Shown in pieces: positions 2,735 to 37,328 of a stretch of 64,000 nt of DNA. The notes under the pieces were generated by a model, which was given only the letters and a program-made list of their open reading frames with translations, made no database searches and was not told the origin of the DNA. Both the position numbers and the translations under genes were made by a program. Source of the DNA: Thermoanaerobaculia bacterium (GTDB taxonomy: Bacteria > Acidobacteriota > Thermoanaerobaculia > Multivoradales > UBA5704). The stretch spans positions 7,520 through 71,519 of the forward strand of contig DASVEF010000299.1 of NCBI GenBank assembly GCA_036380715.1, written 5' to 3'. Position 1 is the first letter of the stretch. Each line of letters begins with the position of its first letter.

Positions 2735-2750
2735 GCCGACCGGACCGACT

Positions 2751-10371: not shown

Positions 10372-10572
10372 CGCCTGTGCTCGGATGCACAGCGGCTGTG
10401 CTCGCAGCGCAGGCGCTGTGTATCCGAGCGCAGAGGCTGTGTATGGGAGCGCAGGCGCTGAGTATGCGAGCGCAGGTGCTGTGCATCCGAGCGCAGGCGC
10501 TGTGTGTCCGAGCATAGCCGCTGAGTATCCGAGCACAGGCGCTGTGCATCGGAGCGCCAGGGCTGTGCAGGG
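10372..10572. repeat. 21-bp minisatellite, ~9.5 copies (consensus tgtgyatccgagcgcaggcgc)
   Basis: Read directly. In one frame it encodes a heptad A-V-x-P-S-A-G repeat. Embedded in a T-run-containing non-coding-looking block. Confidence 0.8.
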
Positions 10573-17645: not shown

Positions 17646-19820
17646 TCAATTCAGCGGGGAGCGGCCGAGCAGGTGGCGCTCGAGCCAGGAGATTTCGGTG
17701 AAGAGCCGGGTCCGCTTGTGCGAGGGCTTGCGGAAGATGTGCCCCTCGCCCGGGTAGATCAGCAGCTCGACCGGCACGCCGCGCCAAGCCAGAGTGCGGT
17801 ACATCTCCTCGGCCTGCTCCGGGCCGTCGAATTCGCCGAACGTGATCAGCGTCGGCGTCTTCACCTGGCCGGCACGGCTGCTGGGCGACTCGTCCTGGTA
17901 GCGGGCAGGGTCCTCCCAGGGTGGCCGGCTCCGGTAGAAGCCTTCGGCCCAGAAAGCGCCCCGCGGGGAGCCGGCGACCATGGAGACGTCGTTCCAGCGC
18001 CCCGCCCCGGACACGGCGGCGCGGAACAGGCCGCTCCGGCCGATCAGGCAGTTCGTCAGCCCTCCCCCGCCGCTGTACCCCGTAACCCCCACCCGTTCGC
18101 GGTCCGCCCAGCCCAGGGCCAGCAGGTGCTCCACCCCGGCGATCACGTCAGCCGACGGACGCGAGCAGCGGTGGCCCTCCAAGGCCTGCCCGAAGGCGTC
18201 TCCCCGGCCGGCGCCGCCCCGGAAGTTCGGGGAGAGCACCAGGAATCCCCGGGAGGCCAGCAGGCCGGGATAGGAGGCGAAGCTCCCGCCCACGGACACG
18301 GTCTCCACGCGCGCCACGCCGAAGGGACCGCCATGGAGATGGACCACCAGCGGCAGCCCCTTCTCACCCTTGCGGCCCGGTGGCCAGAGGAGCACGCCCT
18401 CGATCGTGTCCCCCTCACGATTCTTCCAGGAGATCGTCTCCACCTCCGGCGCGGGATGGCGGTCGAGAGCCGCGTTGAAGCTCGTCAGCGCCCGCGCCGC
18501 CGCCATGCCGTCCGGCCCGTCCGCCAGCCAGATCTCGGGGAAACGCCGGTCGTAGCGCACGAAAGCGATCCTCCGCCCGTCCCGCGACGCCGTGAGCAAC
18601 TCGGTCATGCCACGGTGGTCGGCGAGGGTCTGAACCCGTCCGCTCGCGGGCTCGATCCGGTAGATCCGCGTCCGAGTCGAGACCAGGGCCGTCGCCAGGA
18701 TGGAGCCGCCGGCGAGGGGGACCGCCTCCAGGACGCTCCCCTCCAGATCCGGCGCGACCCGCGCGATCCCGCCGCCGGGCTCCACGCGATAGAGCCGTCC
18801 TTCGGTGGTGGTGAACCGTCCATCCCGCTCCTCCCCGGAGCCTGTGATCAGGAGGTCGCGGCCCGCCCAGAGCACCCGTTCCTCATAGACCCAGTTGCGG
18901 GTGCGCACCGGAGCGACCGCCTCCGGTCCCAGGGGCAGGACGGAGACCTCCCACTCCCTGACCGGGCCGTAGGGGCTCCCCGCTCCGAAGGCGATCCGGC
19001 CCCCGTCGGGAGAGAGATGGATGCTTCCCGGATTTGGCTCGGCCGATGCGAGGGGGACGGCGGTGCCCGTGGCGAAGTCGGCCCGGGCCAGCCGGTAGAG
19101 AGTGGTCCCGGGATCGGGGAGCTCGGGAAGGCGGCGGACGTCGCCGTAGATCCGGCGCCTCTCGCGGCCGGCCTGCAGCTCCGTGCCGGTCGGCGGGGTG
19201 ACGGCCGAGAGGACGACTCCCGAGCCGTCCGGCAGCCAGTCGTGGGAGAGGATCCCGGACTCGAAACGGGCGGGATCGGTCACCCGCCGCGGCCTACCCT
19301 CCAGTGGATCGAGGACCGAGAGCTGGGGCGCCTCCGGGGTGGAGAGGAACGACAGGAGCTTCCCGTCGGACGACCACCGGAGCTCCCGGAGGGCCGCCGG
19401 CTCGACGGCGAGGCGGACGGGCTTCGGCGCTCCGGGCGCCGCGAGGTCGATCCACCAGATGGCGTGCTCCTCCACGTCGCGGGCCGGGTCGTCCCTGCGA
19501 GCGATGAAGGCGAGCCGGTTGCCGTCCGGGGAGAGCGCGACCTCGAGGAAGGCGACCTCCGCGAGCCACTCTTCGATGGAATAGCCGGAGGCCGGAGGGA
19601 CGAGAGACAAGGCGGCGAGAAGGAGGGCCGCGAAGAGGACTGTCCTCGCCCGGGCGCGGCGCGGGCCCTCACCCCCGTCCCCTCTCCCGAAGGGAGAGGG
19701 GTGAAAGCTCTGGAAAAAGCTCAGAAGACCGCGATTTTCTCTGCAATTTCCCCCTCTCCCTCCGGGAGAGGGGGCCAGGGGGTGAGGGCTCAGCGGAACG
19801 GCCTTACGCCTTTGAAACAA
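17646..19820 (-). CDS. S9 family serine peptidase (prolyl oligopeptidase/DPP-like) with N-terminal TolB-like beta-propeller; start uncertain
   Basis: Catalytic Ser in GYSGGG; C-terminal alpha/beta hydrolase; beta-propeller repeats. The first ~55 codons of the ORF are a MITE/REP-like element (LSPHPLAPSPGGRGG...). The true start is probably near the signal peptide VLFAALLLAALSLVP, but no clean start codon was found. Confidence 0.75.
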   Translation of the reverse strand: MFQRRKAVPLSPHPLAPSPGGRGGNCRENRGLLSFFQSFHPSPFGRGDGGEGPRRARARTVLFAALLLAALSLVPPASGYSIEEWLAEVAFLEVALSPDGNRLAFIARRDDPARDVEEHAIWWIDLAAPGAPKPVRLAVEPAALRELRWSSDGKLLSFLSTPEAPQLSVLDPLEGRPRRVTDPARFESGILSHDWLPDGSGVVLSAVTPPTGTELQAGRERRRIYGDVRRLPELPDPGTTLYRLARADFATGTAVPLASAEPNPGSIHLSPDGGRIAFGAGSPYGPVREWEVSVLPLGPEAVAPVRTRNWVYEERVLWAGRDLLITGSGEERDGRFTTTEGRLYRVEPGGGIARVAPDLEGSVLEAVPLAGGSILATALVSTRTRIYRIEPASGRVQTLADHRGMTELLTASRDGRRIAFVRYDRRFPEIWLADGPDGMAAARALTSFNAALDRHPAPEVETISWKNREGDTIEGVLLWPPGRKGEKGLPLVVHLHGGPFGVARVETVSVGGSFASYPGLLASRGFLVLSPNFRGGAGRGDAFGQALEGHRCSRPSADVIAGVEHLLALGWADRERVGVTGYSGGGGLTNCLIGRSGLFRAAVSGAGRWNDVSMVAGSPRGAFWAEGFYRSRPPWEDPARYQDESPSSRAGQVKTPTLITFGEFDGPEQAEEMYRTLAWRGVPVELLIYPGEGHIFRKPSHKRTRLFTEISWLERHLLGRSPLN
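19666..19789. repeat. MITE/REP-like element, copy B (full length; reverse-complement orientation of copy A)
   Basis: ccctcacccccgtcccctctcccgaagggagaggggtgaaagctctggaaaaagctcagaagacc...ccctctccctccgggagagggggccagggggtgaggg. The core is near-identical to rc(copy A). Confidence 0.8.
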
Positions 19821-19824
19821 ACTC

Positions 19825-20343
19825 TCAGCCTCGCACGAACGTCCCGCGCTCCGTATCCTTGCGGACGCCGGGGAACTTCAGGGCGCGGCCGTGCGCCACG
19901 CAGTAGACCCCCGGCGGCAGGATGCCGGTGGCGAAAATCGCCTCGGTCAGGTTCTGCAGGGCGTCGGACTGCTTCATCTCGAACGGGCGCATGGCCCCGG
20001 TCAGGACGATCGGGATGCAGGGATCGGGAATCTCGGCGAGGAGGCAGTCGCCGGTCATGGCCAGCCGGTCGGTGCCGTGCAGGACGACGATGCCGGTCAT
20101 CTCGCCCCCCTCCCCTTCCGCACCGATCGCCTTGACCATCTGGACGACCCGGGCCCGGTCCTGGTCCGTCATGTCCAGGCTGTCCTTGCTCATCAGCTCG
20201 AGGACGCTGACCTCGGTGTCCTCCAGCCGCAGCTCGGAGAGCATCCGCCGCACGATCGAGCGCCGGTTGGCCAGCTCGCCCGACAGCTCGTCATAGGTTT
20301 TCTCGATGGTTCCGCCGGTGGTGATCAGGGTGATTCTGCGCAC
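19825..20343 (-). CDS. Asparaginase-domain protein (N-terminal type-I L-asparaginase fold only)
   Basis: TGGTIEK threonine-nucleophile motif at the N-terminus. 172 aa, so short form. Confidence 0.65.
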   Translation of the reverse strand: MRRITLITTGGTIEKTYDELSGELANRRSIVRRMLSELRLEDTEVSVLELMSKDSLDMTDQDRARVVQMVKAIGAEGEGGEMTGIVVLHGTDRLAMTGDCLLAEIPDPCIPIVLTGAMRPFEMKQSDALQNLTEAIFATGILPPGVYCVAHGRALKFPGVRKDTERGTFVRG

Positions 20344-20370
20344 GGAGCGGACTCTATCGCATCACCTCTC

Positions 20371-20395
20371 CCCCGCTCGCGCCCGATCCCGATCC
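20371..20395. repeat. 18-bp direct repeat, copy 1 (cccgctcgcgcccgatcc), upstream of the DUF433/DUF5615 cassette
   Basis: Copy 2 at 21133-21150 (cccgctcccgcccgatcc; 17/18 match) lies inside the 3' end of the DUF983 gene. Confidence 0.45.
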
Positions 20396-20434
20396 AATGG
20401 CCAATCCCTGCCTGAGCTGCTGAGCTGTTATAGT

Positions 20435-20770
20435 GTGCTGGTGTCCAAGCTTGAGAAAGCCGAGCAGCTACTGACCGAGATGAACCGGGCAGAGAAGGCG
20501 CAGATTCTCCAGTGGGTGGTCCAGGACTTGGGGGATGCCTTTCCCGGAATCGAAAGCCGTCCGGACGTCTGCGGCGGCGAGCCGTGCATCGTCCGTACCC
20601 GGATTCCCGTCTGGCTGCTCGTCCAGGCGCGGCGTTTGAGCACCAGCGAATCCGACCTGCTGCGGGCCTATCCCACCCTTCGAGCCGAGGATCTGGCCAA
20701 CGCCTGGGCCTACTATCGCGCTCACCCTGAGGAGATCGAGCGCCAGATCCGGGAGAACGAGGCGGCCTGA
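20435..20770 (+). CDS. DUF433-domain protein (antitoxin-like partner of DUF5615)
   Basis: GTG start. CGGEPCIVRTRIPVWLLV...LLRAYPTLRAEDLANAWAYY is the DUF433 signature. 4-bp gap to the DUF5615 gene. Confidence 0.7.
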   Translation: MLVSKLEKAEQLLTEMNRAEKAQILQWVVQDLGDAFPGIESRPDVCGGEPCIVRTRIPVWLLVQARRLSTSESDLLRAYPTLRAEDLANAWAYYRAHPEEIERQIRENEAA

Positions 20771-20774
20771 GCGG

Positions 20775-21116
20775 ATGGCCCGGCTCTACACGAACGAGAA
20801 CTTCCCGCGTCCCACCGCCGAGGAGCTACGCCGGCTCGGGCACGACATTCTGACTGTCCAGGAAGCCGGCTATTCCGGGCAAGCGGTCCCAGACTCTCAA
20901 GTCCTCGACTTTGCCAAGGATGAGGAGCGTGCCGTCGTAACCCTGAATCGGAAACACTTCCTCCGCCTTCACCAGGAACGGCCAGACCATTCAGGAATTG
21001 TCGTCTGCACCTTCGATCCCGACTTTTCAGGCCAAGCCTACAGAATCCATGAAGCCCTGAAGGGCCAGGAGCCGCTCGCCGGTAAGCTCATTCGAGTCAA
21101 CCGGCCAGGGCCGTAA
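20775..21116 (+). CDS. DUF5615-family PIN-like protein (putative toxin partner of DUF433)
   Basis: 113 aa. The N-terminus MARLYTNENFP...LGHDILTVQEAG is typical of DUF5615. Confidence 0.7.
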   Translation: MARLYTNENFPRPTAEELRRLGHDILTVQEAGYSGQAVPDSQVLDFAKDEERAVVTLNRKHFLRLHQERPDHSGIVVCTFDPDFSGQAYRIHEALKGQEPLAGKLIRVNRPGP

Positions 21117-21122
21117 CGGCAG

Positions 21123-21485
21123 TCACGGTCCTTCCCGCTCCCGCCCGATCCAGTAGTTGAGCGCCACGGCGATCCCCTTGCGGTGCGGCAGCGACAGCCC
21201 GATCACCACGACGGCCGCGATGCCGATCACGATCTGGCCCAGCCAGACCCACTCGGGGCGGACCAGGAACATCAGGACCACGAAGGAGCCGGTCAGCCCG
21301 GCTGTGGTCATGTACATGAAGAACCAGGTGTCGCCCGGCTCGCGCTCGAAGCGGAACCCACACACGGTGCAGGCGTCGCGCAGGTGATGCCAGCCGTCGA
21401 AGAGCCGTCCCTCCCCGCAGCGGGGGCAGCGGCCCCGGAAACCCCGGAGCACGGCCTGCCGCAAGCTTTTGGGACGGTTCGTCAC
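21123..21485 (-). CDS. DUF983 zinc-ribbon membrane protein
   Basis: CPRCGEGRLF...CTVCGF (CxxC-x17-CxxC) followed by two TM helices. 4-bp overlap with the upstream TIR-STAND gene, so co-transcribed. Confidence 0.7.
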   Translation of the reverse strand: MTNRPKSLRQAVLRGFRGRCPRCGEGRLFDGWHHLRDACTVCGFRFEREPGDTWFFMYMTTAGLTGSFVVLMFLVRPEWVWLGQIVIGIAAVVVIGLSLPHRKGIAVALNYWIGREREGP

Positions 21486-24400
21486 CCGGGCAGCTTAGAA
21501 CAGGTCTTGCGGTAGGAGAGCTGATCGCCCACGTGGTGCGACCACTCCTCGAGGGTGAGGTTGCGCCCGACCGTACGGCAGGCGGCGTCGATCAGCTTGT
21601 CGAGCTGAAGCGACCAGAGGCGGGCGGTGCCGTCGCCGCTCGCGCTTGCCAGGCTCTGGCCGTCCGGGCTGAAGGCCAGGCTGTAGACGTTGTCCCCGTG
21701 GCCGTGCAAGACGAGCGGCCGGACGTCAGGTTGTTCCAGGTCCCAGAGGCGGACCGTGCGGTCGCGGCTCCCGCTCGCCAGGCGCTTGCCGTCCGAGCTG
21801 AAGACGGCCACCGTGACGCTGTCGTCGTGGCCGGAGAGGACGACCGGGGCCGGGGAGGGGGTCTCCAGGCTCCACACCCGGATGGTCCGGTCGTCGGCGG
21901 CCGTGGCCAGGCGGTGACCGTCCGGGCTGAAGGCCATGCCGTGGACGACCCCCTCGTGCCGGCCCACGTCGACCGCCGCAGTCGAAGGCTTCCCCACGTC
22001 CCACAGCCGGACGTCGCCTCGCCGGGTTCCGGTGGCCAGACGCTTGCCGTCGGGGCTGAACGCGACGGTGACGAAGCTGTCTCCCTTCCGTGAGAGCACG
22101 ACGGGAGCCGCGGTCGGAGCTTCCACGTTCCACAGGCGGACCTCCGCGTCCTCGCTGGCGGCGGCGATCCGGCGCCCGTCCGGGCTGAAGGCGAGGTCCA
22201 CGACCCTCTGTTCCCTGGGACCCTGGAGGACAAACGCCGAGCTCTCGTCCTCGAGGCTCTCGACACGGACGGTGCCCTCCCGGTTGCCGATCGCCACGCG
22301 GCGGCCGTCCGGGCTGAACGCCACGCTCTCGATCTGCCCCATCCAGAAGGAGTGATCCACCGCGGGAGTCTCCGGGTGGCGCAGGTCCCAGACGCGGGCG
22401 TGCCCGTCCCAGCTCGCGGTCGAGACGCGCCCGCCGGTCCGGTCGAAGGCGACCCGCACGACGCGTCCGCCGTGCCCTCCCAGCACGACCGGCTCGGTCT
22501 CCCGGTGCTCCAGGCTCCAGAGTCTCGCGAAGCCGTCCGAGCTCCCGGTGGCCACCCAGCGGCTGTCCGGGCTGAACGCCAGGCTCACGATCGTGTCGTC
22601 GTGGCCGCGGAGCGTGGCGGTCAGGCGGGGAGTCGAAATATCGACCTTCCACAGCCGGAGCGTGGCGTCCTCGCCACCCGTGGCCAGCCAGCGGCCGTCC
22701 GGGCTGAAGGCGAGGATCCGGATGTCGTCCTCGTGTCCCAGCAGAGGGAACGGCTCGCCTCCGCCCTCGGTCCCCAGGAGATAGACCGTGCCGTCCCAGC
22801 TCCCCGTGGCCAGACGGCGGCCGTCCGGACTGAACGCCACGGCGCGGAAGGGGTTCTCGTGCCCGGTCAGGAAGCGGCTGTCGCGCACGCCCGCGGGGTC
22901 CCACAGGCGGACCGTGCCGTCGTCGCTTCCAGACACCAGGATGCTGCCGTCCGGGCTGAACACCAGCACGCCGATGTTGCCCGTATGGCCGGCGAGGACC
23001 ACGGGGGCGGACTGCGGCTCGGCGGTCTTCCAGACCCGCACCTTGTGGTCCCGGGCGCCGGTCGCCACCAGGCTGCTGTCCGGGCTGAAGGCCAGCGCTT
23101 CGATCTCTCCTTCGTGACCCGAGAGGATGGTGGCGGCAGGCTCCGCCGTCGTGAGATTCCAGAGGCGGGCCTTGCGGTCGTCCCCGCCGGCCGCCAGCCA
23201 GCGGCCATCGGCGCTGAAGGCGACCATGCGCACGGGACGCTCGCCGGCGGCGAGGACGCGGGGATGCGCCGAGGGGTTGCGGGAATCCCAGACGCGGACC
23301 GTGCCGTCTTCCCCGCCGGAGGCGAGTTGCGAGCCGCCGGGGTTGAAGGCCAGATCCTTGACATCCCCCTTGTGACCGCCGAGCACCGCGGGCGCGCTCC
23401 CCGGCTGCGCCACGTCCCAGAGCCGCACGGTACCGTCCTCGCTCGCCGTGGCGAGGCGGCGTCCGTCCGGGCTGAAAGCGACTTTCGTGACCCCTGCCTG
23501 GTGGCCAGCCAGGGGGATCGAGCCCGCCACCTTCGCCAGAGTGTGCCGCAACGCCTCCTCGCCGAGGGCGGTCTCCAGCCCGATCTCGCGCTTCAGGGCG
23601 ATGGACTCCAGAGCCAGGAGGAGGCTGCGTTGTGGCGTGTCCTCGATGCCGGTCACCGCCTGGGCGGCGAGCTGGCGCACCAGGGCGGTACGGCCCTGCA
23701 GCTTCGCCGTCTGGCGCTGCAGGAAGGAGACGACGGCCAGGGCCGCGGCGACCAGCCCGACGGCGGCGAGCAGGATCGAGAACCGGCGCATCCGGGCGGC
23801 CGCCTGTCTCTGCGTCTCCTCGCGGGCCTTGGCCTCCTCGGTGAGGCGTTGCGCCGCAACCAGCTCGCGCTGGCGCTGCGCCTCCTTCTCCGCCGCCTCG
23901 CGGTCACGGAGCGCCACGCTCGCGGCGACGAATCCCCGCTCCAGCTCGTTCACCTCGCCGGCGCGCTTCTCCACCAGCTCCTGCGCCGCGGCGAGCTGGG
24001 CGCCGCGCAACAGGCTCCCCTCGTCCTGGCCGAGGCGCAGCCACTCCTCAGCCTGTTCGGTCAACCGGCGCTGGATGCGCAGGGCGGCCCGCCCCTCCTC
24101 GATCCAGCCGCGGAAGCGGGGCCAGTTGCGGATCAGCGCCTCGTGCGACACGTCCACCAGCTCGTCGCCGCTCGCCGCGTCGCGGCCGGTGGTGAGCAGC
24201 CGCGCCTCGGCCAGCCGGCCGACGACCGACTTCAGCTCGGCGTTCTGTCCGGGCAGCTCCTTGAAGCGGGCGCGGCGGCGCGTGTCCTCCGTGCCCTCGC
24301 CGGGCTGCACCAGGCGCAGCAGGACGCGGCGGGCCATCTCCTGCTCGCCGGGCGAGAGCTTCTCCAGCTCCTCCTCCGCCCGCCGGGCGATGGCGCCGTG

Positions 24401-25717
24401 CACGCCGCCGATCGCCGCGTAGGCCTCGTGCGTCAGGCGCCGCCCTTGCCGGCGCTCCCACAGCTCGAGCAGCGCGTGCTCCAGGAGCGGGAGAGCCCCG
24501 GGCTGGCCAGACAGGTCCTGCAGGATGGCGTCGGGCAGCCCTTCCTCCATCTCGAGCCCGACCTGGAGGGCCGGCCCTTCGATCGCCTGGCGCAGCTCGC
24601 TCTCCACCATCGGCGAAACCAGCACGTGGCTGTCCGACATGCGGTCGGCCAGTTGGGGATAGGCCGCGGCGCGGGCGTAGAAATCCGCCCGCATGGTGAC
24701 CACGACCACCGTGCGCCCCTCGGCCACGTTCGCCGCGTACAGCAGGTTGTCGAGGAAGCGCTGCCGCACCTCTTCGGACGGGCAGAGAGTGAACACCTCC
24801 TCGAACTGGTCGACCACGATCACCACCCGGCGCCGCTCGTCGCCCCCGGTCAGGGCGAGCCGCACCGCGGAGTGGAGCGCCTTGTCGCTGACGCTCAACG
24901 TCTCCTGGAGCTGCAGCAGGGTGGCGACCCGGCCGCCTTCGGGATCGAGGACCGGCGCCAGTTGGACGGCCAGCTCGTCGAGCGGCTGCGAGCCCGGCTT
25001 CATGACCAGCACGGGCCATGAGTCGCTGCCCGGCAGCGCGCCCTGACGCAGCGTCGGGACCAGGCCGGCGCGAACCACCGACGACTTGCCGCTGCCCGAC
25101 GGTCCCAGCACGGCGAGGAAGCGGCTCTGGCGCAGCCGCTCCACCAGCCACTGCGTGAGCGCCTCGCGGCCGTGGAAGAAGCGGGCGTCCTCCTCGTGGA
25201 ACGCGGCGAGACCGCGGTAGGGGCAGACGCCGATCTCCGCGACCTCCCCTTCGGAAGGGCCGGGCGGGAGGCCGCGGACGCCGCAGATCAGACGGCGGAA
25301 CGCGTCCTCGTCCGCGAAGCCGTTGCGGAAATCGACCCAGGTGACGCGGCTGAGGAAACGCGGCAGCCGTCCCCGCTCGGGCATCACGGCGCCCTGGAGC
25401 AGCACCGGGATGACCCGGTACTCGGGGGACTTCACCCGCTCGTCGAGGGCCGCCCGCATCTCCTCGTTCTCCCAGGCGCCCAGCCCGTGCGGGCCGAGGA
25501 AAACCGCGCAGGTGATGCTCTCGTCGAGCGCCCTCTCCAGAGCCTCCTGCCAGACCTCGCCGGGGACGAGGTGCCACTTGTCGAGGAACGGCTGCACCCC
25601 GGCGTCGCGCAGCCGCCGGGCCAGCTCCTCCACGAGCGGCTTGTCCGCGCTGTGGTGGCTGAGGAAGACGTCGTAGCGCTTCGCGGGGGCTGCTGCCGGA
25701 GCCGTGGCGGTGCTCAT
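21482..25717 (-). CDS. TIR domain / STAND P-loop NTPase / transmembrane helix / WD40-repeat protein (1411 aa)
   Basis: N-terminal TIR (YDVFLSHHSADKPLVEELARRLRDAGVQPFLDKWHLVPGEVW). STAND N-terminal helix motif GVCPYRGLAAFHEEDARFFHGRE plus Walker A VLGPSGSGKSSVV. Predicted TM segment FSILLAAVGLVAAALAVVSFL. At least 14 WD40 blades (recurring GH...VRLWD/VRVW). Confidence 0.85.
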   Translation of the reverse strand: MSTATAPAAAPAKRYDVFLSHHSADKPLVEELARRLRDAGVQPFLDKWHLVPGEVWQEALERALDESITCAVFLGPHGLGAWENEEMRAALDERVKSPEYRVIPVLLQGAVMPERGRLPRFLSRVTWVDFRNGFADEDAFRRLICGVRGLPPGPSEGEVAEIGVCPYRGLAAFHEEDARFFHGREALTQWLVERLRQSRFLAVLGPSGSGKSSVVRAGLVPTLRQGALPGSDSWPVLVMKPGSQPLDELAVQLAPVLDPEGGRVATLLQLQETLSVSDKALHSAVRLALTGGDERRRVVIVVDQFEEVFTLCPSEEVRQRFLDNLLYAANVAEGRTVVVVTMRADFYARAAAYPQLADRMSDSHVLVSPMVESELRQAIEGPALQVGLEMEEGLPDAILQDLSGQPGALPLLEHALLELWERRQGRRLTHEAYAAIGGVHGAIARRAEEELEKLSPGEQEMARRVLLRLVQPGEGTEDTRRRARFKELPGQNAELKSVVGRLAEARLLTTGRDAASGDELVDVSHEALIRNWPRFRGWIEEGRAALRIQRRLTEQAEEWLRLGQDEGSLLRGAQLAAAQELVEKRAGEVNELERGFVAASVALRDREAAEKEAQRQRELVAAQRLTEEAKAREETQRQAAARMRRFSILLAAVGLVAAALAVVSFLQRQTAKLQGRTALVRQLAAQAVTGIEDTPQRSLLLALESIALKREIGLETALGEEALRHTLAKVAGSIPLAGHQAGVTKVAFSPDGRRLATASEDGTVRLWDVAQPGSAPAVLGGHKGDVKDLAFNPGGSQLASGGEDGTVRVWDSRNPSAHPRVLAAGERPVRMVAFSADGRWLAAGGDDRKARLWNLTTAEPAATILSGHEGEIEALAFSPDSSLVATGARDHKVRVWKTAEPQSAPVVLAGHTGNIGVLVFSPDGSILVSGSDDGTVRLWDPAGVRDSRFLTGHENPFRAVAFSPDGRRLATGSWDGTVYLLGTEGGGEPFPLLGHEDDIRILAFSPDGRWLATGGEDATLRLWKVDISTPRLTATLRGHDDTIVSLAFSPDSRWVATGSSDGFARLWSLEHRETEPVVLGGHGGRVVRVAFDRTGGRVSTASWDGHARVWDLRHPETPAVDHSFWMGQIESVAFSPDGRRVAIGNREGTVRVESLEDESSAFVLQGPREQRVVDLAFSPDGRRIAAASEDAEVRLWNVEAPTAAPVVLSRKGDSFVTVAFSPDGKRLATGTRRGDVRLWDVGKPSTAAVDVGRHEGVVHGMAFSPDGHRLATAADDRTIRVWSLETPSPAPVVLSGHDDSVTVAVFSSDGKRLASGSRDRTVRLWDLEQPDVRPLVLHGHGDNVYSLAFSPDGQSLASASGDGTARLWSLQLDKLIDAACRTVGRNLTLEEWSHHVGDQLSYRKTCSKLPG

Positions 25718-25783
25718 GATGCCAAATCGCGGGATTTCAAGGAGATCCTACGACAAGACGCCTCTTCTGTCGACCCCTGACGG
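25718..25783. repeat. ~55-66 bp direct repeat, copy 1, bracketing the vapBC cassette
   Basis: gatgccaaatcgcgggatttcaaggagatcctacgacaagacgcctcttctgtcgacccctgacgg, compared with 26508-26561 ggtgccaaatcgcggatttcgacaaggcgcccctgttgtcgaccccggggg. Confidence 0.7.
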
Positions 25784-25870
25784 CAAGGAGCATAGAGGCG
25801 CGCTCGGTAGTTGCCCTCATCGGGCAGATCACACGTATACTATGAGTGAGGGCCGTATGCGAGGAAGCTC

Positions 25871-26092
25871 ATGAAGACAAAGCTGACTGTCACCATCGAT
25901 GAGGAGCTGATTCCCAAAGCGAAGCGCTACGCCCGGCAACGGGGAATCTCTCTCTCCCAGCTCATCGAGACGTCGCTGCGGAGCACCACGGAAGGGGAAG
26001 AAACCACCTTCTCCCAGCGCTGGAGGGGGAAGTTCGAACCGGCCAACCGCGATGACGAGCGCTACAAGGCTCTCGCGAAGCGTTACCTGTGA
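25871..26092 (+). CDS. vapB: VapB-type antitoxin (DUF6364-like)
   Basis: 73 aa. MKTKLTVTIDEELIPKAKRYARQRGISLSQLIE is the typical small antitoxin pattern. ATGA overlap with the PIN gene. Confidence 0.65.
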   Translation: MKTKLTVTIDEELIPKAKRYARQRGISLSQLIETSLRSTTEGEETTFSQRWRGKFEPANRDDERYKALAKRYL

Positions 26093-26505
26093 TCGTTCTC
26101 GTCGACACAGATGTACTGATCGACCTGGCGCTCAACCGAGCCCCGAACGCCGAGCCCGCGGCTCATCTTCTCGATCTACTTGAAAGACGGCCGGGAACAG
26201 CCTTCGTGGCTTGGCACTCCCTCGCGAACTTCTACTATGTGGTCTCTCCGATCCGGGGAAAGCAGCCGGCCCGGGATTTCCTCATCGACTTGGCGCGCTT
26301 CATCGAAGTGGCGTCCACGACAACAGAGAGCCTGCTCTACGCGGGCCAGTTGGACATGCCCGACTTCGAGGATGCGATGCAGGTCGCCGCAGCCTTGGCT
26401 TGTCGGGCCGGGCTGATCGCCACCCGGAACCTTCGCCACTATAAGCGGTCCCCGGTCCGAGCCGCGGAGCCACGCACTGTCGTGGAACAACTGCTGGGAA
26501 ACTGA
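26089..26505 (+). CDS. vapC: PIN-domain toxin VapC
   Basis: MIVLVDTDVLID with acidic residues at PIN positions (D6, D8, E..., D...). 138 aa. Confidence 0.85.
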   Translation: MIVLVDTDVLIDLALNRAPNAEPAAHLLDLLERRPGTAFVAWHSLANFYYVVSPIRGKQPARDFLIDLARFIEVASTTTESLLYAGQLDMPDFEDAMQVAAALACRAGLIATRNLRHYKRSPVRAAEPRTVVEQLLGN

Positions 26506-26507
26506 TC

Positions 26508-26561
26508 CATGGTGCCAAATCGCGGATTTCGACAAGGCGCCCCTGTTGTCGACCCCGGGGG
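26508..26561. repeat. Direct repeat, copy 2, bracketing vapBC
   Basis: See 25718-25783. Confidence 0.7.
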
Positions 26562-26584
26562 TGTGAAGGTCCGTTCGCGCGGAA

Positions 26585-26880
26585 GGGAGGATCGTACAGA
26601 CCGGGAGGATCGTCCGGTCCTGCGGTGCGAACGTCCGTTCCTGCGGGGAGACGGCTCGGGCGAGTAGGGAGGAGCGTCCGTTCCTACGGGGAGACGGGCC
26701 GGGCGAGCGGGGAGACGGGCCGTCCGAGTGGGGAGAGCGTTCCGTTCCTACGGGTGGGAAGCTCGTTCGGGCTCCCCCAAGGCCCTCCCCACTGGAACGG
26801 AGCGTCCGTTCGCGTGGGGAGAGGCCTCTCCCCGCACGAACGGAGCTTCCGGGCGCCCGCCGGCGCTTCGCCCCCGCTCG
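26585..26880. repeat. Degenerate tandem repeat array (units ~22 bp, cgtccgttccTRcggggagacgg; irregular spacing) in a ~700-bp non-coding gap
   Basis: At least four copies of the gtccgttcc-containing unit plus gggagacggg repeats. Includes the local palindrome gaacgga-gcg-tccgttc. Confidence 0.6.
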
Positions 26881-27211
26881 CCCCGGCTTTGCCACTGCCG
26901 AAACGGGCGCCGCCGGCGCGTTCCCGCACCAGCGGCGAGCACGTCCACGATCAGGCCACGTCCGTACGGCCTTCCGTCACGTGCGAATCGAGGATCGCAC
27001 CGCAGCGCTCCAGCGCCACCCCGTCGACAGCCCCCGCAGGTACAGGATCGGCAGCACCGCGGCCACCTTCGGCGACCGGCGCGTGTACGGCGGCAGGATC
27101 GAGCTCGTGAAGCGCTGCCGGCGACCCTCCTCGTCCACCCGCCGGTCATTGAGCTACAGGATTTGACCGTGCCTTCCCCAAATGGTGCCCCCTGGGCATC
27201 GCTTCGAAGCG

Positions 27212-30200
27212 TTAGGCGGACGAGTCACGTTGCCAGTCGGCCATTCGCCCAATGAGCCATATGAACGGCTCGACCTGGCCGTTCAACACGCATGCGCCCT
27301 TGATAATGCTGTCAAGCAGTCCCTGCACATCAGACAAGCACAAGGCGGAGACCGCCCGGTTGTCCGTGGGAAGCAATGAACAGAACGGCGTATCTGTTGT
27401 CTCGCGAGCTCCCAACGTGACGTCTCGCTCCTTGATCATAATCGTGATCGGTTCTCCATTGTCTGGGAGTCCGACCGACACGGCGAGATTCGGAGTCGGG
27501 CCATGGGCCCTGGCCAGCGTTTCCTTCAAGTAGGCGGAAAAGGCTTTGGCCCACTCCTCCACGCCGGATCGTCCTGGGGCCACCTCGAATTCGCTTTCGC
27601 CGGACGCGCGATCTTCCAGAGCCTGTCGCTCCTCCTCAGCTTCGCGCTCCGCGTCGATGAGGGCCTCGAGGGTCCTGTCAACGTCCTCTCGTGTATGAGA
27701 AGCCGAGCAGATGAACCTTAGGCGACCTCGTCCGATCTCCACGACCGGGTACGTTACAGCCGCCGTGAGCACGCCACGCTTATATAAGCCGTGTGCAATC
27801 GCATAGAGCTTGTCTTTATCGGAAAAATGCGGGGTGACAATGGGGCCATCTCCTGTCCCGAGGTCATATCCTGCTTCGGAGAACCGCTTCCGCATGTAGG
27901 TAGTTATATCCCAGAGTCGCTCTCGCAGTGCGTCGTCCGCGCTCAATCGGCGCAAGGCGGCGAGCGCTGCCGCGATATCGGCAGGGCTGGTCGTAGCCTG
28001 GAATATAAAAGCTCTGGCGGACGACTTCAGCAGGTCAATGTGCTCCTCTCGGGCGGCAATCACACCCCCAATGCTCCCGAGCGCCTTACTGAGCGTCGTC
28101 ATGATGAAGTCTACCTGGTCGGTGACACCTTGAGAAGCGCAAAGACCGGCTCCTCGAGGGCCATAGAAGCCAAAGGAATGCGCCTCATCCACGAGCACGA
28201 GCGCATCGTATTTCTTCGCCGTGAGCACGATGTCCGCTACCGGCGCCACCCCCTCTCCCATGCTGTAGACGCTTTCGAGAACTACAAGAGCCGTGCGGTA
28301 AGGCGACGCTTCCGTCTTGAGGACTGATTCCAAGTCCGATGGATTGTTGTGTTGAAACGTTCTTATCGTCGCACCGGACAGCCGGGCGCCGTCAACGAGG
28401 GAAGCGTGACAGAGCTGGTCCATCACGACGACATCGTTGTCGCCAAGAATGCCTGCGACAACTCCGAGATTCGCGGTGAATCCTGTGGGGAACAGGCACG
28501 CGGCAGGCTTTCCCACCAACTCGGCAAAGGCTCTCTCGAACTCCAGGTGGAGATCGGTTACGCCGGATGCCACTGCGGATGTTCCCATTCCGGCCCCGAA
28601 GCGCTCCAGGGCAGATCTGGCTTCCTCAATGACCTCCTGATCACGGTTCAGGCCGAGGTACAGGTTGGTGGTCCATATGATGGCCTCGCGTTCTTCATGG
28701 GTGTACATATCGGCGACAGTGCCTCTGTGCGCGCTTCCTGTACGCAGCAACTTGCTGTGGGGGTCTCGGCCACGACGGCCCACCAGCCGCTTGAGCTCCC
28801 GGACGAGCATACCCTTGTCGGTAGCGGACCAGGAGGGCGCCTTCGCAGCCATGAACGGCGGGTAGCTGGACTGAATCTGGGCCTGAAAGCTAGCGAGTGT
28901 ATCCGAGGCTCCACCGCGCGCCTTCTCCGGCGGCGCATGCTCCGTGGCGCTGCTCATCGACTCGAGGACGTAATCGGCCAGAGCAGCAGGAGTAAAGCGC
29001 TGGATAACAGCCGATGCCGGCAGCCTTCGACCTATGTTCGCGGCAAGCCGATTGCTCAGCTCCACCACGGTCAACGAGTCGAGGCCGAGGTCGTTCAATG
29101 AGTGATCCAGCGGCACTTGCTCGGGATCACGAAGACGAAGGAGAGGCGCGATCTCGCCTCGAATGATCGATAGCAGGGCCGCATGCCGCTCGTCCTTCGA
29201 AAGGCCCGCCAGACGGTGCACCCCGCCCCCGGCGTCGCGGGTGACGTCGGCCCCGGAGTGAGGGGCGAGGCATTGGCGCCGGTCAGGATCGCGACTCGCC
29301 TCCGGTTCCGGGAGCTGCTTGCGGTCGAGCTTGCCGTTGGGCAACCGAGGCAGCTCCTCGAGGTGCATCACGACCTGAGGCAGCATGTACTTCGGCAGCC
29401 GCTCCGCCAGGTACGCTCGCGCCGCCTCACGGGTCACCGCCTCGTCCCGGCTCACCACATACACCACGAGCATCTTCTGGCCGCCGCCCCCGTCCACGAC
29501 CGCCGCCGCTGCGCCGTCCACGCCTTCCATCGACTCCAGCGTCGACTCGATCTCTTCGAGCTCTACCCGGAAGCCTCGGATCTTTACCTGTTGGTCGATC
29601 CGGCCCAGGAACTCGATCTCGCCGTCTTCCCTCCACCGGCATAGATCTCCTGTTTTGTACAGCCGCTCTTCCGGAATCGGCCCGGTCGGATCCACCTCGA
29701 TGAACCGCTCCCTCGTAAGCTCCTCGTCGTGCAGGTATCCGCGCCCAAGCTGGTCTCCCGCCAAGTACATCTCTCCTGGAACCCCGACGGGAACCGGCTG
29801 CATGGAATCGTCCAGGATGTACGACCGAGAGCTCGACACCGGCTTGCCGATCGTGATCGACTCCGCACCTGCAGAAACCTCGGTAGCCGTCGAAAAAACC
29901 GTGTCCTCGGTCGCCCCATAGACGTTGACCACCCGCAGGCCCGGCTGCAGCGCGTGAAGCTGGTCCACCAGCGACCGCTTGAGCACTTCGCCCCCCAAGA
30001 CGAAACACCGGATCCCCTCGGGCAGCCGTCCGGTCGCGAGCAACGCCTGCATCCCCGACGGCACCATGGTGCACGTCCTCACCCGGTCCGCCGACGGCAG
30101 CTCCAGCAGGGCCAGCAGGTTCTCGGCCAGCACCACCGTCCCGCCGAGTGACAACGTACCCAGGATCTCCATGACCGAGGCGTCGAAACAGATAGAGGCA

Positions 30201-30901
30201 GCCGACAGCACACCCGACAGCTCCTCGTCATCCAGCAACTTGCGCATCGACCGGGTCATCGCGACAACGCTTCGATGTTCGACGGCGACCCCCTTCGGTC
30301 GCCCTGTCGAGCCCGACGTGTACATGACATACGCCAGGTCGCTCGCCGACGGCCCAGCCACGCCGTCCGCCGTCCACTCCCCCACCTCATCGAGCCGTAC
30401 GAGCTTTGGCACCCCCTCGCAGAGCTCTGCCATACTCTCGCGGTCCACGATGGCGGCCGCTACACGAGCGTGCTCCAGCATGTAGCGCACCCGCTCCCGC
30501 GGATACGCCGGATCCAGCGGCACGTACGTACACCCCGCTCGCAATACCCCTACGAGAGTCGCCACGAGCTCCCACGTGCGGCTCATGCACACCCCGACCA
30601 ACGACCGCGGCTCCACGCCCCGAGCCACGAGCTCGCCCGCAATCGCGCTCGCCCGTTCCGTCAGTCGCTGGTAGTCGATCGCCGTCTTGCCATCGATGAT
30701 CGCCGTCCGCTCCGGATGCGCCTGCGCCTGCTTCTCGATGAGCCCCCAGACCGTCTCCGTCCGGTCGTACGCCTCCTGCGTCCGAGCCCATTCGACGTGA
30801 ACACGTTGCGCCTGCTCCTCGTCCAGCAAGGAGACTCTCCCTCTAGGCACACTCGGATCCTGGGTAACATGCTCCAGCACACGCTTTGGGGTATTGTTCA
30901 T
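27212..30901 (-). CDS. NRPS-like tridomain: adenylation domain, PCP, PLP-dependent alpha-oxoamine synthase, plus a ~130-aa C-terminal domain of unknown function
   Basis: A domain cores A3 [13 protein letters not shown]7 YKTGD, A8 [21 protein letters not shown]10 PNGKLDR; the FDAS Asp implies an amino-acid substrate. PCP motif LGLDSL. AOS/BioF-like class-II aminotransferase ([21 protein letters not shown]-lysine TLSKALG). Confidence 0.85.
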
Positions 30902-30989
30902 CGTAGACTGCCTTTCCCGCTAAATAGTCTCGGTCTACCGGCCGCAACCGTGGAGGGCCGGTTCGCCGATCGCCCGCCGGAGGACGGTC

Positions 30990-33122
30990 CTACCGCCCAA
31001 TGTCGCGCCGCTCCGACTCGGTCCGGGCCCGGAGCGCGCTCGCCAGGAAGCGGGCGGCGAGGCTCCGGGAGAGCAGGCCCCGCTCCCGGAGCACCTCCAG
31101 GGCGCCGGCCACGCACGAGCGGTACTTCCGGCTGCCCAGCGACGGGTCCAGAGGGTCGCACGGAATCTCGGGGAAGACGATCCGCTCGCCGGCCCTGATG
31201 TCGTAGAGGCGGTTGACGGTGCCCCCGGGCCACAGGACCTCCACCGTGGCGGTCTTGGCCCGGCCCAGCCCGAAGAGCTGCGCCAGGGCGTCCTGGGAGG
31301 CGAAGCCCGATCCGCCGGCGACGGGGCGCAGCGTGGTCCGTCCCCCCTCGGGGGTCACCCGGATCACGGCGCCGATGCCGTCCCGGTTGACCCGCCCGTC
31401 GGGCAGCAGGCCCACGGTTCCCAGCGTGCGGACCTCGACCCAGCCGTTGTCGTTGCCGTCGTTGATCTCCACGGCCAGCCCCCCGTCCGGGAACTCGAGC
31501 CCGTTCCAGGTGAAGGCGCCACCTGCGGCCGGGGCGAAGACCTCCACGTATCTGGCGGTGGCATCGAAGGGACTGCCGTACTCGACGGGGTAGCGCTTCA
31601 GGGGGATCTCTTCCGGGATATCGAATGCGGAGGCGGTCACCAGATCCGGAAAGCCGTCCCGGTTCAGATCGCCGGTGGCGCCGCCATGGACGTTGCGCCG
31701 GGCGTGGTCCACGGCGAGGGCGTCCAGGTCGGCCTCGAAGCGGGCGGAGCAGCCCGGGTTGAGGAGGACGGCCCCGGGGTTGTCGGCGTTGATGGTGTGG
31801 AGGGAGCCGTCCAGGCTGCCGAAGAACACCACGTCCGGGTCGCCGTCGTTGTCCAGGTCCGGCGCCATCACAGCCCAGCCGAAGGGGGTGGCCCGGAGCG
31901 CCCCGGGCCCGGCGTCCACGAAGCCCCCTTCGGACGTTCCGAGGAAGGCCCGGGAAGAAAGCTGCCCCCGGGTGAAGGGTATGCCCACGACCGAGAAGAC
32001 GTAGTCGCCCATGTTCGTGGCGAAGAAGTCCATGTGGCCGTCGCAGTCGAAGTCGGCGAACGCGAGGCCCATCCAGGACGTGCCGGGCAGGTCCGTGCCC
32101 ACCCGATGGGTCACGGAGGTGAACCGGCCGGCGCCGTCGTTGTTCAGGACCTGGATTAGCCCGCGGCTCACTTCCGTCGGGGGGAGGCCCCCCTGGTCGT
32201 CGGCCTGGAGCAGGTCCACGTCCCCATCCTGGTCGTAGTCCACCAGGGCCAGGGCCCAGGTGATGGTGGCGGCGCCGTCCCGCGGCGGTCGGAAGCCGGT
32301 GAGGTTCCGGATGCCGGAGCTGACGCTCGCGTCCCGGAAGCGCAGGCGGCCTTCGTTCAGGAAGAGCTGGTTCGGGTGGCTGTGCTCCCAGGGCTCCACC
32401 AGGGTGGCGGTCCGGCGGCTCCAGTCGTAGGAGTTGGCCACCGCCAGGTCCAGCAGGCCGTCGCCGTCCACGTCGCCCACGGAGCAGTGGGTATGGCCCA
32501 GGTCGCTCTTGCCCAGGCCGCTCTCGGCGGTGGCGTCCCGGAAGGTGCCGTCGCCCCGGTTCTCGAACAGGCGGTTCGGCTCCGAGCGGCCCAGCACGAC
32601 CAGATCCGGGTCGCCATCGTTGTCCAGATCGCCGAAGCAGACGCCGGTGGAGTCCTGGTCGGTGGCGGCGACGCCCGCCGCCTCCGCCACGTCCTCGAAG
32701 CGCAGGGCTCCGGTCTCCTCGAGGCGGTTGGCGTACAGGCTGTTGGCGGCACCGGGACCGTTGGTCACGTAGAGGTCCAGGTCGCCGTCGCGGTCGAAGT
32801 CGAGCAGCGCCACGCCTGGTGAGCCGCGGGGCTTCTCCGGCGTGGCGACGACCAGCGGCATCGTGTAGAGGGGCTGAGCCTTGATCCGCTCGAAGACGGC
32901 GTTCGTGGCCGACGGCGCGCGCCGGTAGTCGATCCCGGAAGCCTCGTCCGCCGCCAGGTCGTGGAACGTGACGCCGGCCCCGACGTCAGCGGCGGCCGGC
33001 ACGCCCGCGCCTACGAGCACCGCACGCCGAGCGGACGCGGCTCGACCGTGCCCGCCGCAGGCGGCCAGCACGCCCGCGCCCACGAGCGCCGCGAGCAGGA
33101 TCGTGGCGGTGCGGTGGAGCAT
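30990..33122 (-). CDS. CRTAC1-family protein (FG-GAP/VCBS repeats plus ASPIC/UnbV C-terminal domain), lipoprotein-like signal
   Basis: Repeated DxDxDGxxD calcium-binding beta-propeller motifs (LDFDRDGDLDLYV, FGDLDNDGDPDLVV, GDVDGDGLLDLAV) and a C-terminal ASPIC-like region. Signal peptide LLAALVGAGVLAAC. Confidence 0.75.
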   Translation of the reverse strand: MLHRTATILLAALVGAGVLAACGGHGRAASARRAVLVGAGVPAAADVGAGVTFHDLAADEASGIDYRRAPSATNAVFERIKAQPLYTMPLVVATPEKPRGSPGVALLDFDRDGDLDLYVTNGPGAANSLYANRLEETGALRFEDVAEAAGVAATDQDSTGVCFGDLDNDGDPDLVVLGRSEPNRLFENRGDGTFRDATAESGLGKSDLGHTHCSVGDVDGDGLLDLAVANSYDWSRRTATLVEPWEHSHPNQLFLNEGRLRFRDASVSSGIRNLTGFRPPRDGAATITWALALVDYDQDGDVDLLQADDQGGLPPTEVSRGLIQVLNNDGAGRFTSVTHRVGTDLPGTSWMGLAFADFDCDGHMDFFATNMGDYVFSVVGIPFTRGQLSSRAFLGTSEGGFVDAGPGALRATPFGWAVMAPDLDNDGDPDVVFFGSLDGSLHTINADNPGAVLLNPGCSARFEADLDALAVDHARRNVHGGATGDLNRDGFPDLVTASAFDIPEEIPLKRYPVEYGSPFDATARYVEVFAPAAGGAFTWNGLEFPDGGLAVEINDGNDNGWVEVRTLGTVGLLPDGRVNRDGIGAVIRVTPEGGRTTLRPVAGGSGFASQDALAQLFGLGRAKTATVEVLWPGGTVNRLYDIRAGERIVFPEIPCDPLDPSLGSRKYRSCVAGALEVLRERGLLSRSLAARFLASALRARTESERRDIGR

Positions 33123-33269
33123 CGATCACCTTCTCTCTGATTGGTCCGACGGACAGAGAATCGCCACCTCGCTATACATTATGAGGTGCGCGCGAATGAC
33201 GGAGCGGGACAGGAGGTGGCGGCCGACACGCGCGGGACGGCGAACGGCCAGACCCTCAGCAGGATCGAG

Positions 33270-36608: not shown

Positions 36609-37199
36609 GCGAACCGCATTGTATCGTCCGCGCGGGCCCCTCACCTCCCCGGCCCTCCTCTCCCCGAGGGTCTGTGAATATATCGAGGGTCACTGCTGTC
36701 CAAGAACGGTCTGCCAGGCTGATGAGAAGCCAGTCGCGAGGCGGGTTTCTGTGGTCCAGAGCGGCACTTTGGCGGTCCAGGTCTGGGGGGTCATGAAGGG
36801 AGCTGTCCAAGAGACCCAGCAAGGAGAGGCTGAGCTGTTCAGGAGGTGGCAGCCGGGGCGGAGTATCAAAGGACTTGTTCAACTACTCATTCAGATCGCG
36901 GTAGGTAAACAGGTTCCAGACGCAGGAGCGAGGCTAGGTGGAGGGCCTTGAAGAACAGCTCGATCGGGGCCTAGCAGGTGTCAGCCTCCGCCTCGTCGAG
37001 CGGCTCAAGGAGCGCTTCGACCCACTCCGCGCGCCACTCCTGCGGGTCGTCTTCAACCTCGACCGCCGGGTCGACCTGCCGGCGATGGAGGGGCTCTCGG
37101 TCCGGCTCCGGCCGACGCCGATCACCCACACGCAGCTCGACTTGAGCGTCAACGTCCTCGAAGAGGGAGGCCGCCTCGGGCGGAGACGGCGGGCCGCCC

Positions 37200-37328
37200 G
37201 GCTACGCCCCGGAGCCGGTGGCGGTCGGCGAGGGGGGAGTGATTGCAAATAAATAAAATGGTATACCCAAAGGAAAAAGGGGTCGTCACCGGCTCTCGCT
37301 TCCTGGACAAGAGGATAAACTCCGCACC
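37200..37328 (+). promoter_or_regulatory. AT-rich putative promoter/leader upstream of pabA
   Basis: gattgcaaataaataaaatggtatacccaaaggaaaaagggg is strongly AT-rich against the ~70% GC background. Confidence 0.35.

Follow-up and report, generated by a model that had tools for sequence, protein, structure and literature searches.

How does a small toxin–antitoxin (TA) gene pair come to lie between two copies of the same short sequence, directly against the start codon of its neighbour? The question is raised by a vapBC pair in a stretch of 64,000 nucleotides (nt) from a Thermoanaerobaculia bacterium (Acidobacteriota; GenBank assembly GCA_036380715.1, contig DASVEF010000299.1, positions 7,520 to 71,519 of the forward strand), which we analyzed as a whole and call the window. 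Positions are those of the window unless another contig or locus, denoted by an L number, is named. The neighbour is a gene divergent to vapBC that encodes a TIR-nSTAND1-WD40 protein of 1411 amino acids (aa) (TIR-STAND; 21482–25717, minus strand; open reading frame (ORF) list and Pfam), and its 5′ end would be the target of insertion. Solitary chromosomal TA modules are horizontally transferred and most have no linked mobility genes, and how they move is a long-standing gap. The preliminary description of this DNA had proposed that the vapBC pair is an inserted cassette with a duplicated target or recombination site. We find that the repeats are probably a long target duplication, resulting from the insertion of a ~0.72-kb vapBC cassette at the 5′ end of TIR-STAND. 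This core of the earlier proposal is supported by the limits of homology in the closest relative (L002), by a single copy of the repeat in a sister strain (L090), and by two further cases, the pair L041/L089 and a second TA cassette in the window.

Two direct repeats of the TIR-STAND leader flank vapBC

Two similar sequences flank the vapBC pair in direct orientation on the plus strand. With refined limits, copy 1 occupies 25715–25777 (CATGATGCCAAATCGCGGGATTTC[AAGGAGATCCTAC]GACAAGACGCCTCTTCTGTCGACCCC) and copy 2 occupies 26508–26556 (CATGGTGCCAAATCGCGGATTTCGACAAGGCGCCCCTGTTGTCGACCCC), and fainter similarity may extend to 25790 and 26569, respectively. Local alignment matches 44 of 49 aligned bases, with gaps of 1 nt and 13 nt, and yields a Smith–Waterman score of 51. 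In 2000 dinucleotide-preserving shuffles the score averages 14.6 (standard deviation 2.3) and reaches a maximum of 27; the next best match to copy 1 elsewhere on either strand of the window also scores 27. The preliminary description had placed two direct repeats here and had suggested a formal alignment and a search for further copies. Both repeats lie where it put them, and their similarity is far above the expectation from shuffled sequence. The search for more copies found none: mismatch-tolerant and blastn-short searches of the 64-kb window found the two copies and no third, and a 24-base gapped pattern of the repeat had zero matches in GTDB species genomes and JGI metagenomes. An independently assembled Logan contig (L001) is 100% identical to the window over 19769–26845, both copies included, and the structure is therefore not peculiar to one assembler.

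Both copies open with CATG, and the CAT of copy 1 is the TIR-STAND start codon in reverse complement. The proximal copy (DR-L; 25715–25790, minus strand) has its core at 25715–25777, while 25778–25790 is still homologous to the sister strain. It comprises the TIR-STAND start codon, the leader, and a sigma-70-like promoter, TCGACA–17 nt–TAGGAT, predicted by promoter scan at 25745–25773 on the minus strand. The predicted −10 hexamer TAGGAT sits within a 13-nt segment (~25738–25750) that we confirm in copy 1 and that is missing from copy 2. Comparison with the sister strain is informative here. Clustered at 90% identity, the TIR-STAND protein has a single companion, encoded on Logan contig L090, and the gene there shares 95.4% nucleotide identity with that of the window (synonymous divergence, dS, 0.117; nonsynonymous divergence, dN, 0.019). 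In L090 the leader occurs once, immediately before the same ATG, with the 13 nt included and both promoter hexamers kept, and vapBC is absent. On the strength of these alignments, the repeat is the leader, predicted promoter and ATG of TIR-STAND and not part of the vapBC module.

The distal copy (DR-R; 26508–26561, minus strand) appears as a relic of the TIR-STAND leader and ATG without the 13-nt −10 segment. It is flanked by two convergent genes, vapC and one for an adenylation-PCP-aminotransferase protein, whose 3′ ends face it, and the promoter scan finds no promoter in it. Since no gene follows copy 2 and its −10 is missing, we interpret it as a relic. Two details of the preliminary description change as a result of these comparisons. 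The 13 nt had been described as an extra segment in copy 1; their presence in the single-copy L090 leader indicates that they are ancestral and that copy 2 carries a deletion. The AAGGAG within copy 1 had been described as Shine–Dalgarno-like; it is instead the complement of part of the TIR-STAND −10 region, and vapB has its own AGGAAG 125 nt beyond it.

The vapBC pair forms a compact cassette

The inserted cassette spans 25791–26507 (717 nt, plus strand) and consists of 22 nt matched in neither L090 nor L002, a promoter/operator, vapB and vapC, ending 2 nt past the vapC stop codon. Its left limit is given by the end of the L090 homology (25790/25791). According to the ORF list and Pfam, the promoter, vapB and vapC are its only contents, with no integrase, transposase or other mobility gene. 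Its GC content is ~0.59–0.63, versus 0.73 in TIR-STAND. The vapB gene (25871–26092, plus strand) encodes a 73-aa antitoxin of the DUF6364 family (PF19891, E 9e-18), ribbon-helix-helix-like, and vapC (26089–26505, plus strand) encodes a 138-aa PIN_3 toxin (PF13470, E 3e-17), domain matches that uphold the earlier vapBC annotation. The GTG start codon of vapC overlaps the vapB stop codon by 4 nt (GTGA). A search with VapC returned 873 homologs at E ≤ 1e-10, and the family-invariant columns are kept in the VapC of the window. An exact-protein look-up found no record for VapC and only L001 for VapB (100% identical to the window).

Upstream of vapB, paired operator-like ACGTATAC motifs occupy 25833–25861 (plus strand). 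The second motif is degenerate (CGTATGCG), and the first overlaps a TATACT −10-like hexamer. In fact, a pair of ACGTATAC palindromes, ~13–15 nt apart, lies upstream of vapB in every DUF6364/PIN_3 subgroup examined, and presumably constitutes the VapB operator. Gene order, overlap, domains and operator-like motifs together identify the pair in the window as a predicted type II VapBC.

Related cassettes share no flanking sequence

The closest vapBC relative for which DNA is available, L002 from farmland soil, is 85% identical at the nucleotide level. This homology is limited to 25813–26505: it begins 58 nt before the vapB ATG and goes no further than the vapC stop codon, with unrelated flanks. 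The homology to L002 thus stops short of the repeats, which argues that the repeats belong to the host site.

An all-against-all comparison of 80 metagenome loci with homologous vapBC, L002 and the window reveals the same pattern across the family. Many pairs are 81–94% identical in DNA over the cassette alone, for example L032/L044 (93.7%), the group of L015, L035, L014 and L034, and the group of L016, L022 and L029. The shared stretch starts 42–100 nt before the vapB ATG, just upstream of the ACGTATAC pair, and ends 0–11 nt past the vapC stop codon, and the flanks are unrelated even with >1 kb of flank available on both sides. This cassette-only homology in unrelated contexts suggests that the vapBC family travels as a discrete ~0.7-kb unit, from the operator to the toxin stop codon. 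On direct reading of the junctions, the ends of the cassettes showed neither inverted repeats nor a conserved sequence, and no shared motif was seen at repeat ends or cassette ends across the loci.

Flanking repeats and empty sites at other loci

For each locus, we aligned 360 nt upstream of the cassette to 300 nt downstream of it and applied a threshold score of ≥50. Direct repeats of their own reach this threshold at 4 of the 68 testable metagenome vapBC loci. At L049, a 140-nt repeat (85% identical) corresponds to the 3′ coding end of the upstream gene. At L017, a repeat of at least 85 nt (89% identical), cut by the contig end, corresponds to the 3′ coding end of an amidohydrolase-like gene, and its distal copy is frameshifted. 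The 49-nt repeat of L041 is 100% identical and comprises the leader and first 13 nt of a downstream EamA transporter gene, while the 45–48-nt repeat of L054 comprises the stop codon of the upstream gene and the sequence downstream of it, with the vapC stop codon coinciding with the start of the repeat. None of 130 spaced pseudo-cassette placements in the same loci reaches the threshold (Fisher p 0.013). Inverted-orientation scores at the loci never exceed 30, and the only signals from sliding controls within the window are on the WD40 repeats and at a single further site.

Self-comparison of L037 reveals a further arrangement, in which two different vapBC cassettes lie one after the other inside a single 124-nt repeat pair (96.8% identical; 871–3164 of this locus, with the cassettes at 1337–2034 and 2274–2908); here the repeat corresponds to the first ~40 codons of an AlpA-like gene. 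At each repeat-bearing locus one of the copies leaves the neighbouring gene complete, and the second is a relic. In sequence, the flanking repeats of the seven loci compared bear no relation to each other, and ARAGORN detects no tRNA gene at L009, L017, L041, L049 or L054.

We note that L009 is more intricate. A 184-nt direct repeat (91% identical) occupies 1199–1381 and 2172–2355 of this locus, and its first copy, which starts 6 nt past the vapC stop codon, is left over from the 3′ end of a gene that lies 0.8 kb downstream and encodes 122 aa. Around vapBC there is also a weak second repeat, derived from a GTPase-like 5′ end. This locus looks like the product of a complex, multi-step rearrangement.

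Two comparisons resolve the state before insertion. The first involves L089, a Logan contig found as the 90%-cluster mate of L041 via the EamA protein and 95–96% identical to both L041 flanks. L089 carries the 49 nt once, with L041 1–202 corresponding to L089 391–592 and L041 945–1824 to L089 544–1423. L041 therefore equals L089 plus a 742-nt vapBC cassette and a second 49-nt copy. Both copies in L041 read ATGAGT and L089 reads ATGGGT; this base, common to the two L041 copies and not found in L089, indicates that the duplication arose in the L041 lineage.

The second comparison concerns another TA family, in the window itself. A 726-nt cassette (20397–21122, plus strand) between DUF983 and an asparaginase gene contains a DUF433 antitoxin-like gene (20435–20770) and a DUF5615 PIN-like gene (20775–21116; both Pfam), ending ≤6 nt past the toxin stop codon. 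In the sister strain L091 there is no TA pair, and 19 nt separate the DUF983 stop codon from the asparaginase start. Copy A of the target duplication (21123–21152, minus strand; core 21134–21151) is the working DUF983 3′ end with its stop codon, and copy B (20362–20396, minus strand; core 20372–20389) is a relic of that 3′ end, including the stop codon. The core of the repeat matches at 17 of 18 bases, scores 31 versus a maximum of 30 in 2000 shuffles, and is extendable to ~30 nt; L091 2815–2832 aligns to both 20372–20389 and 21134–21151. In both comparisons, L041 with L089 and the DUF433/DUF5615 cassette with L091, alignment of the relative reveals one copy and collinearity on both sides, the configuration predicted for an empty site.

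The sister strain at the vapBC locus

Several observations weigh against the interpretation of the vapBC repeats as a target duplication, most of them from the sister strain. Flanking repeats occur at only ~6–9% of the homologous loci. The preliminary description had suggested a search of relatives for an empty site, with a single repeat copy and no vapBC; L090 has one copy and no vapBC, but is collinear with the window only on the TIR-STAND side. L090 2814–7469 matches window 25790–21135, and L090 19–2815 matches window 40105–37310, which holds a pabA/pabB/pabC-like operon. L090 is consequently without 25791–37309, an 11.5-kb stretch made up of the cassette and the adjoining 10.8 kb, and the sequence past the distal copy is unmatched in it. 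The absent stretch comprises the vapBC cassette, copy 2, a REP-like array, and the adenylation-aminotransferase, CRTAC1-like and FG-GAP/TPR genes. At the L090 junction the two matches overlap by 2 nt. Upstream of pabA, a third strain, L094, continues to match the window for 137 nt past this junction, and this places the derived state, a deletion, in L090. Comparison of the three strains thus suggests that L090 is a deletion derivative rather than a pristine empty site, and the pre-insertion state of this locus is not directly seen. The L090 homology also ends at 25790, precisely the left junction of the cassette, an unexplained coincidence under a simple two-event history.

The leaders add a further difficulty. 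Counted by eye on the alignment, the three versions (DR-L, DR-R and L090) have 9, 8 and 9 pairwise differences. They are about equidistant, and the two copies in the window are not shown to be each other's closest relatives. The leader distances are close to the neutral strain distance, so the duplication would be roughly as old as the strain split, with the tree of the three leaders unresolved. Copy 1 and copy 2 differ at 5 of 49 positions and by two indels, a divergence of the same order as the dS of 0.117 between the strains.

In the strains compared, the region between pabA and TIR-STAND is a fast-changing mosaic, different in every strain examined. No leader copy is present in the CRTAC1 cluster members L092 and L093 or in the pabA member L094, each of which has another context. 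The CRTAC1 and adenylation-PCP-aminotransferase gene pair (33223–27077) occurs in three genomic contexts at 88–94% identity, and appears to be a mobile two-gene module. Directly past copy 2, at 26565–26851, lies the REP-like array, with 5–6 direct copies of ~CGTCCGTTCCTRCGGGGAGA at 21/43-nt spacing; it continues as inverted copies in a long palindrome (26798–26851), inside which L001 breaks. This array has no Rfam match and was not found in the other loci.

Alternative explanations for the repeats

The equidistance of the DR-L, DR-R and L090 leaders also favours a different origin for the distal copy, as the leader of another TIR-STAND allele or paralog brought in by recombination with foreign or ectopic DNA. 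Such a copy could have arrived via homology-facilitated illegitimate recombination of vapBC together with a leader fragment, or via a segmental duplication with vapBC landing later. The mosaic region between pabA and TIR-STAND, the lack of relation between the sequence past the distal copy and the sister strain, and the divergence already reached by several repeat pairs elsewhere (85% identical at L049, 89% at L017) are consistent with this origin. We nevertheless consider it unlikely, because the one recent and fully resolved case, L041/L089, was duplicated in place, with a derived base common to both copies. Moreover, the distal copy in the window stops precisely at the ATG and lies no more than 2 nt from the vapC stop codon, as a target duplication predicts, its ~10% divergence fits ageing at the neutral rate, and neither a paralogous TIR-STAND gene nor a third leader copy was found.

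Direct repeats that bracket a small cassette could also be recombination sites (attL/attR, integron attC or dif-like) used by a recombinase acting in trans to move vapBC. TA cassettes are common in chromosomal integrons and pdif modules, and each copy of the repeat has a pair of short palindromic stretches, AAATC-N3/4-GATTT and a CGACAAG...TTGTCG hairpin in which one change is compensatory. This option, which the preliminary description had left beside target duplication, is highly improbable in light of the comparisons above: at other loci, the repeats around homologous cassettes have no motif in common with the window repeat or among themselves, and the window repeat is the single-copy TIR-STAND promoter and leader in the sister strain. 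Its fold energy is no better than that of shuffles (z −0.5 to +0.5, both copies, both strands), and neither GTTRRRY nor RYYYAAC cores are seen on direct reading of both copies. A promoter of its own is present in the cassette, and the repeat is limited to its two copies in 64 kb, with none detected by the 24-base pattern in GTDB species genomes or JGI metagenomes.

We likewise regard as very unlikely a cis-regulatory element kept in two copies, for instance an operator common to TIR-STAND and vapBC, or an antisense promoter into vapC. The conserved promoter in copy 1, and palindromes that could be protein-binding sites, are compatible with such a function. Copy 2, however, is intergenic between convergent genes with no gene to control, has lost the −10, contains no promoter by scan, and has diverged at about the neutral rate. 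In addition, vapBC has its own family-wide ACGTATAC operator-like motifs, and 25300–27400 has no Rfam match at E ≤ 1. Lastly, although the window is 69% GC, chance similarity or low complexity in GC-rich DNA, or an assembly artefact, is practically dismissed by a score of 51, where neither 2000 shuffles nor any other part of the window gave more than 27, and by the identity of the independent contig L001 across the whole structure.

A proposed route of insertion

With target duplication as the preferred interpretation, we infer that the insertion itself made this particular duplication, and propose the following sequence of events. The target duplex would be opened at two points ~50–76 nt apart, one just inside the ATG and the other upstream of the promoter, either via two staggered single-strand breaks on opposite strands or via a template switch in replication or repair. 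The cassette would then be joined between the opened points, and fill-in of the single-stranded target would yield the order target copy, cassette, target copy. Both promoter hexamers (−35 TCGACA and −10 TAGGAT) would have been retained, along with the start codon, in the proximal copy (25715–25790), and TIR-STAND would thereby have stayed expressible. The distal copy may subsequently have decayed through the 13-nt deletion, which removed the −10, and through ~10% substitutions, near the neutral divergence of the sister strains. No transposase, integrase or defined element ends would be involved.

More tentatively, and with confidence well short of that in the local event, we suggest that minimal type II TA cassettes (~0.7 kb, from operator to toxin stop) might spread by a general transposase- and integrase-free pathway that duplicates ~20–180 bp of target, as put forward for restriction-modification systems. 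VapC and other PIN-type toxins are RNases and not DNA endonucleases, which makes an insertion driven by cargo cutting DNA unlikely. As neither VapC nor the DUF5615 toxin is expected to be a DNA endonuclease, the pathway would be host-driven (staggered nicks and fill-in, or template switching) rather than cargo-driven. If true, the duplication would let cassettes land on gene ends or promoters without killing the neighbouring gene.

TIR-STAND and other features of the window

The TIR-STAND protein contains nSTAND1 (E 7e-134) and WD40 (E 2e-147) domains by Pfam and a TIR_2 domain from the precomputed gene call. PADLOC makes no defence-system assignment for the TA proteins and gives only partial TIR/repeat matches for TIR-STAND. 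In a homolog search, the top identity is 67% over a partial match and 65% at near-full coverage. Among GTDB species genomes the best relative is 58% identical, and the upstream regions of the relatives there are unrelated. In L091 (2359–2484), TIR-STAND is cut down to a 41-codon remnant of its 3′ end beside DUF983, indicating that TIR-STAND is itself variable in the population.

The window contains several other repeats. A C-rich motif of ~30 nt (GGCCCCTCACCCCCCCGGCCCCCCTCTCCC) is present in four copies in both orientations (4306–4337, 12123–12154, 36633–36664 and 58408–58436). A tandem array at 10406–10567 has a 21-nt unit (AGCGCAGGCGCTGTGTATCCG) in 7.7 copies with 80% matches, and overlapping tandem arrays with periods of 42, 62 and 83 nt (~4 copies) occupy 62776–63119, with an adjacent 18-nt array. 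The first 62 nt covered by L001 (19769–19830), just downstream of the asparaginase gene, resemble 61287–61227 on the opposite strand at 79% identity.

Comparison with known systems

Among small mobile units, the pdif modules of Acinetobacter plasmids carry TA or resistance genes between conserved 28-bp XerC/D sites in inverted orientation. Similar to these, the vapBC cassette is a small TA-bearing unit without its own recombinase and bounded by short repeats; unlike pdif sites, the repeats in the window are direct, locus-specific and not dif-like. The cassette also resembles integron cassettes in being a compact unit with a limit tight against the ORF end and similar sequences in direct orientation. 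However, there is no attC structure or core site, no array in the window, and no sequence common to the loci, the cassette has its own promoter, and the "site" is the promoter and leader of a neighbouring gene. An integron cassette was thus rejected on folds no better than shuffles, missing core motifs, and repeats unrelated across seven loci. An att-bounded integrative element, of the kind commonly sited at a tRNA gene, was likewise rejected, given that the insert contains no integrase, the repeat sequence is different at every locus, and no tRNA gene was detected at five loci.

Transposons and insertion sequences (IS) also duplicate target sequence directly on both sides of the insert, but their target duplications are short and of fixed length per element, usually <10 bp (PMC2853133, Figure 1 legend). 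The TA cassettes differ in having no transposase and no terminal inverted repeats, and in a duplication length that ranges from ~18 to 140 nt. On these grounds (no transposase ORF in the insert, no terminal inverted repeats, variable duplication length) a transposon or IS was rejected.

A TA precedent comes from Microcystis aeruginosa PCC 7806, where a ParDE-like TA module is fenced by two identical 152-bp direct repeats (PMC7935541). As in the window, a type II TA pair with long direct repeats lies beside a defence- or death-related gene, there a protease gene. The Microcystis repeats differ in that a 16-bp inverted repeat lies within them; the study neither analysed where they came from nor compared an empty site, and does not say if they represent target duplications or a dispersed element (PMC7935541). 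A literature search that was incomplete turned up the restriction-modification work and the Microcystis case, but no general account of type II TA cassettes with long target duplications.

The strongest parallel is provided by restriction-modification complexes inserted with long target duplication, described, as cited in the later papers, by Nobusato et al. 2000 (Gene 259:99). Their flanking direct repeats differ in length (45 to ~420 bp), are unique in the genome and often overlap the 3′ ends of flanking genes; the inserts have no mobility genes, and the repeat is single copy in the empty-site genome (PMC2853133; PMC3874152). The mechanism of these insertions is unknown, and double-strand breakage by the restriction enzyme has been suggested (Furuta et al. 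2010, PMC2853133; Mruk and Kobayashi 2014, PMC3874152). The TA cassettes described here share the addiction-type unit, the absence of mobility genes, locus-specific direct repeats of variable length (~18–140 bp here) that often overlap the ends of neighbouring genes, and an empty-site genome with a single copy. Furuta et al. 2010 considered repeats of >30 bp that are not dispersed in the genome, an insert of <20 kb with a complete addiction unit and no mobility gene, and an empty site. For the window vapBC, the repeat core is 49 nt (63 nt in copy 1), the insert is below 20 kb with a complete addiction unit and no mobility gene, and the empty site agrees in part, whereas for L041 with L089 and for the DUF433/DUF5615 cassette with L091 it agrees in full. 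Unlike in restriction-modification insertions, the cargo is a type II TA pair, in a far smaller unit (0.7 kb) that is cut back to the stretch from operator to stop codon.

In sum, natural examples with resolved junctions, from two TA families and with two clean empty sites, reveal a mobile unit trimmed from the operator to the toxin stop and an insertion that can duplicate tens to >100 bases of target. They link TA cassettes to insertion of the restriction-modification type and argue against a mechanism in which the cargo cuts DNA. Such a duplication explains how a gene can stay intact with a cassette placed at its start codon, promoter or 3′ end. The affected gene here is TIR-STAND, a candidate defence gene, whose predicted promoter is carried in the proximal copy. 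The flanking repeats would, in addition, permit excision or amplification by homologous recombination. We therefore place the vapBC cassette of the window with the known insertions with long target duplication, from which its TA cargo is the difference that matters.

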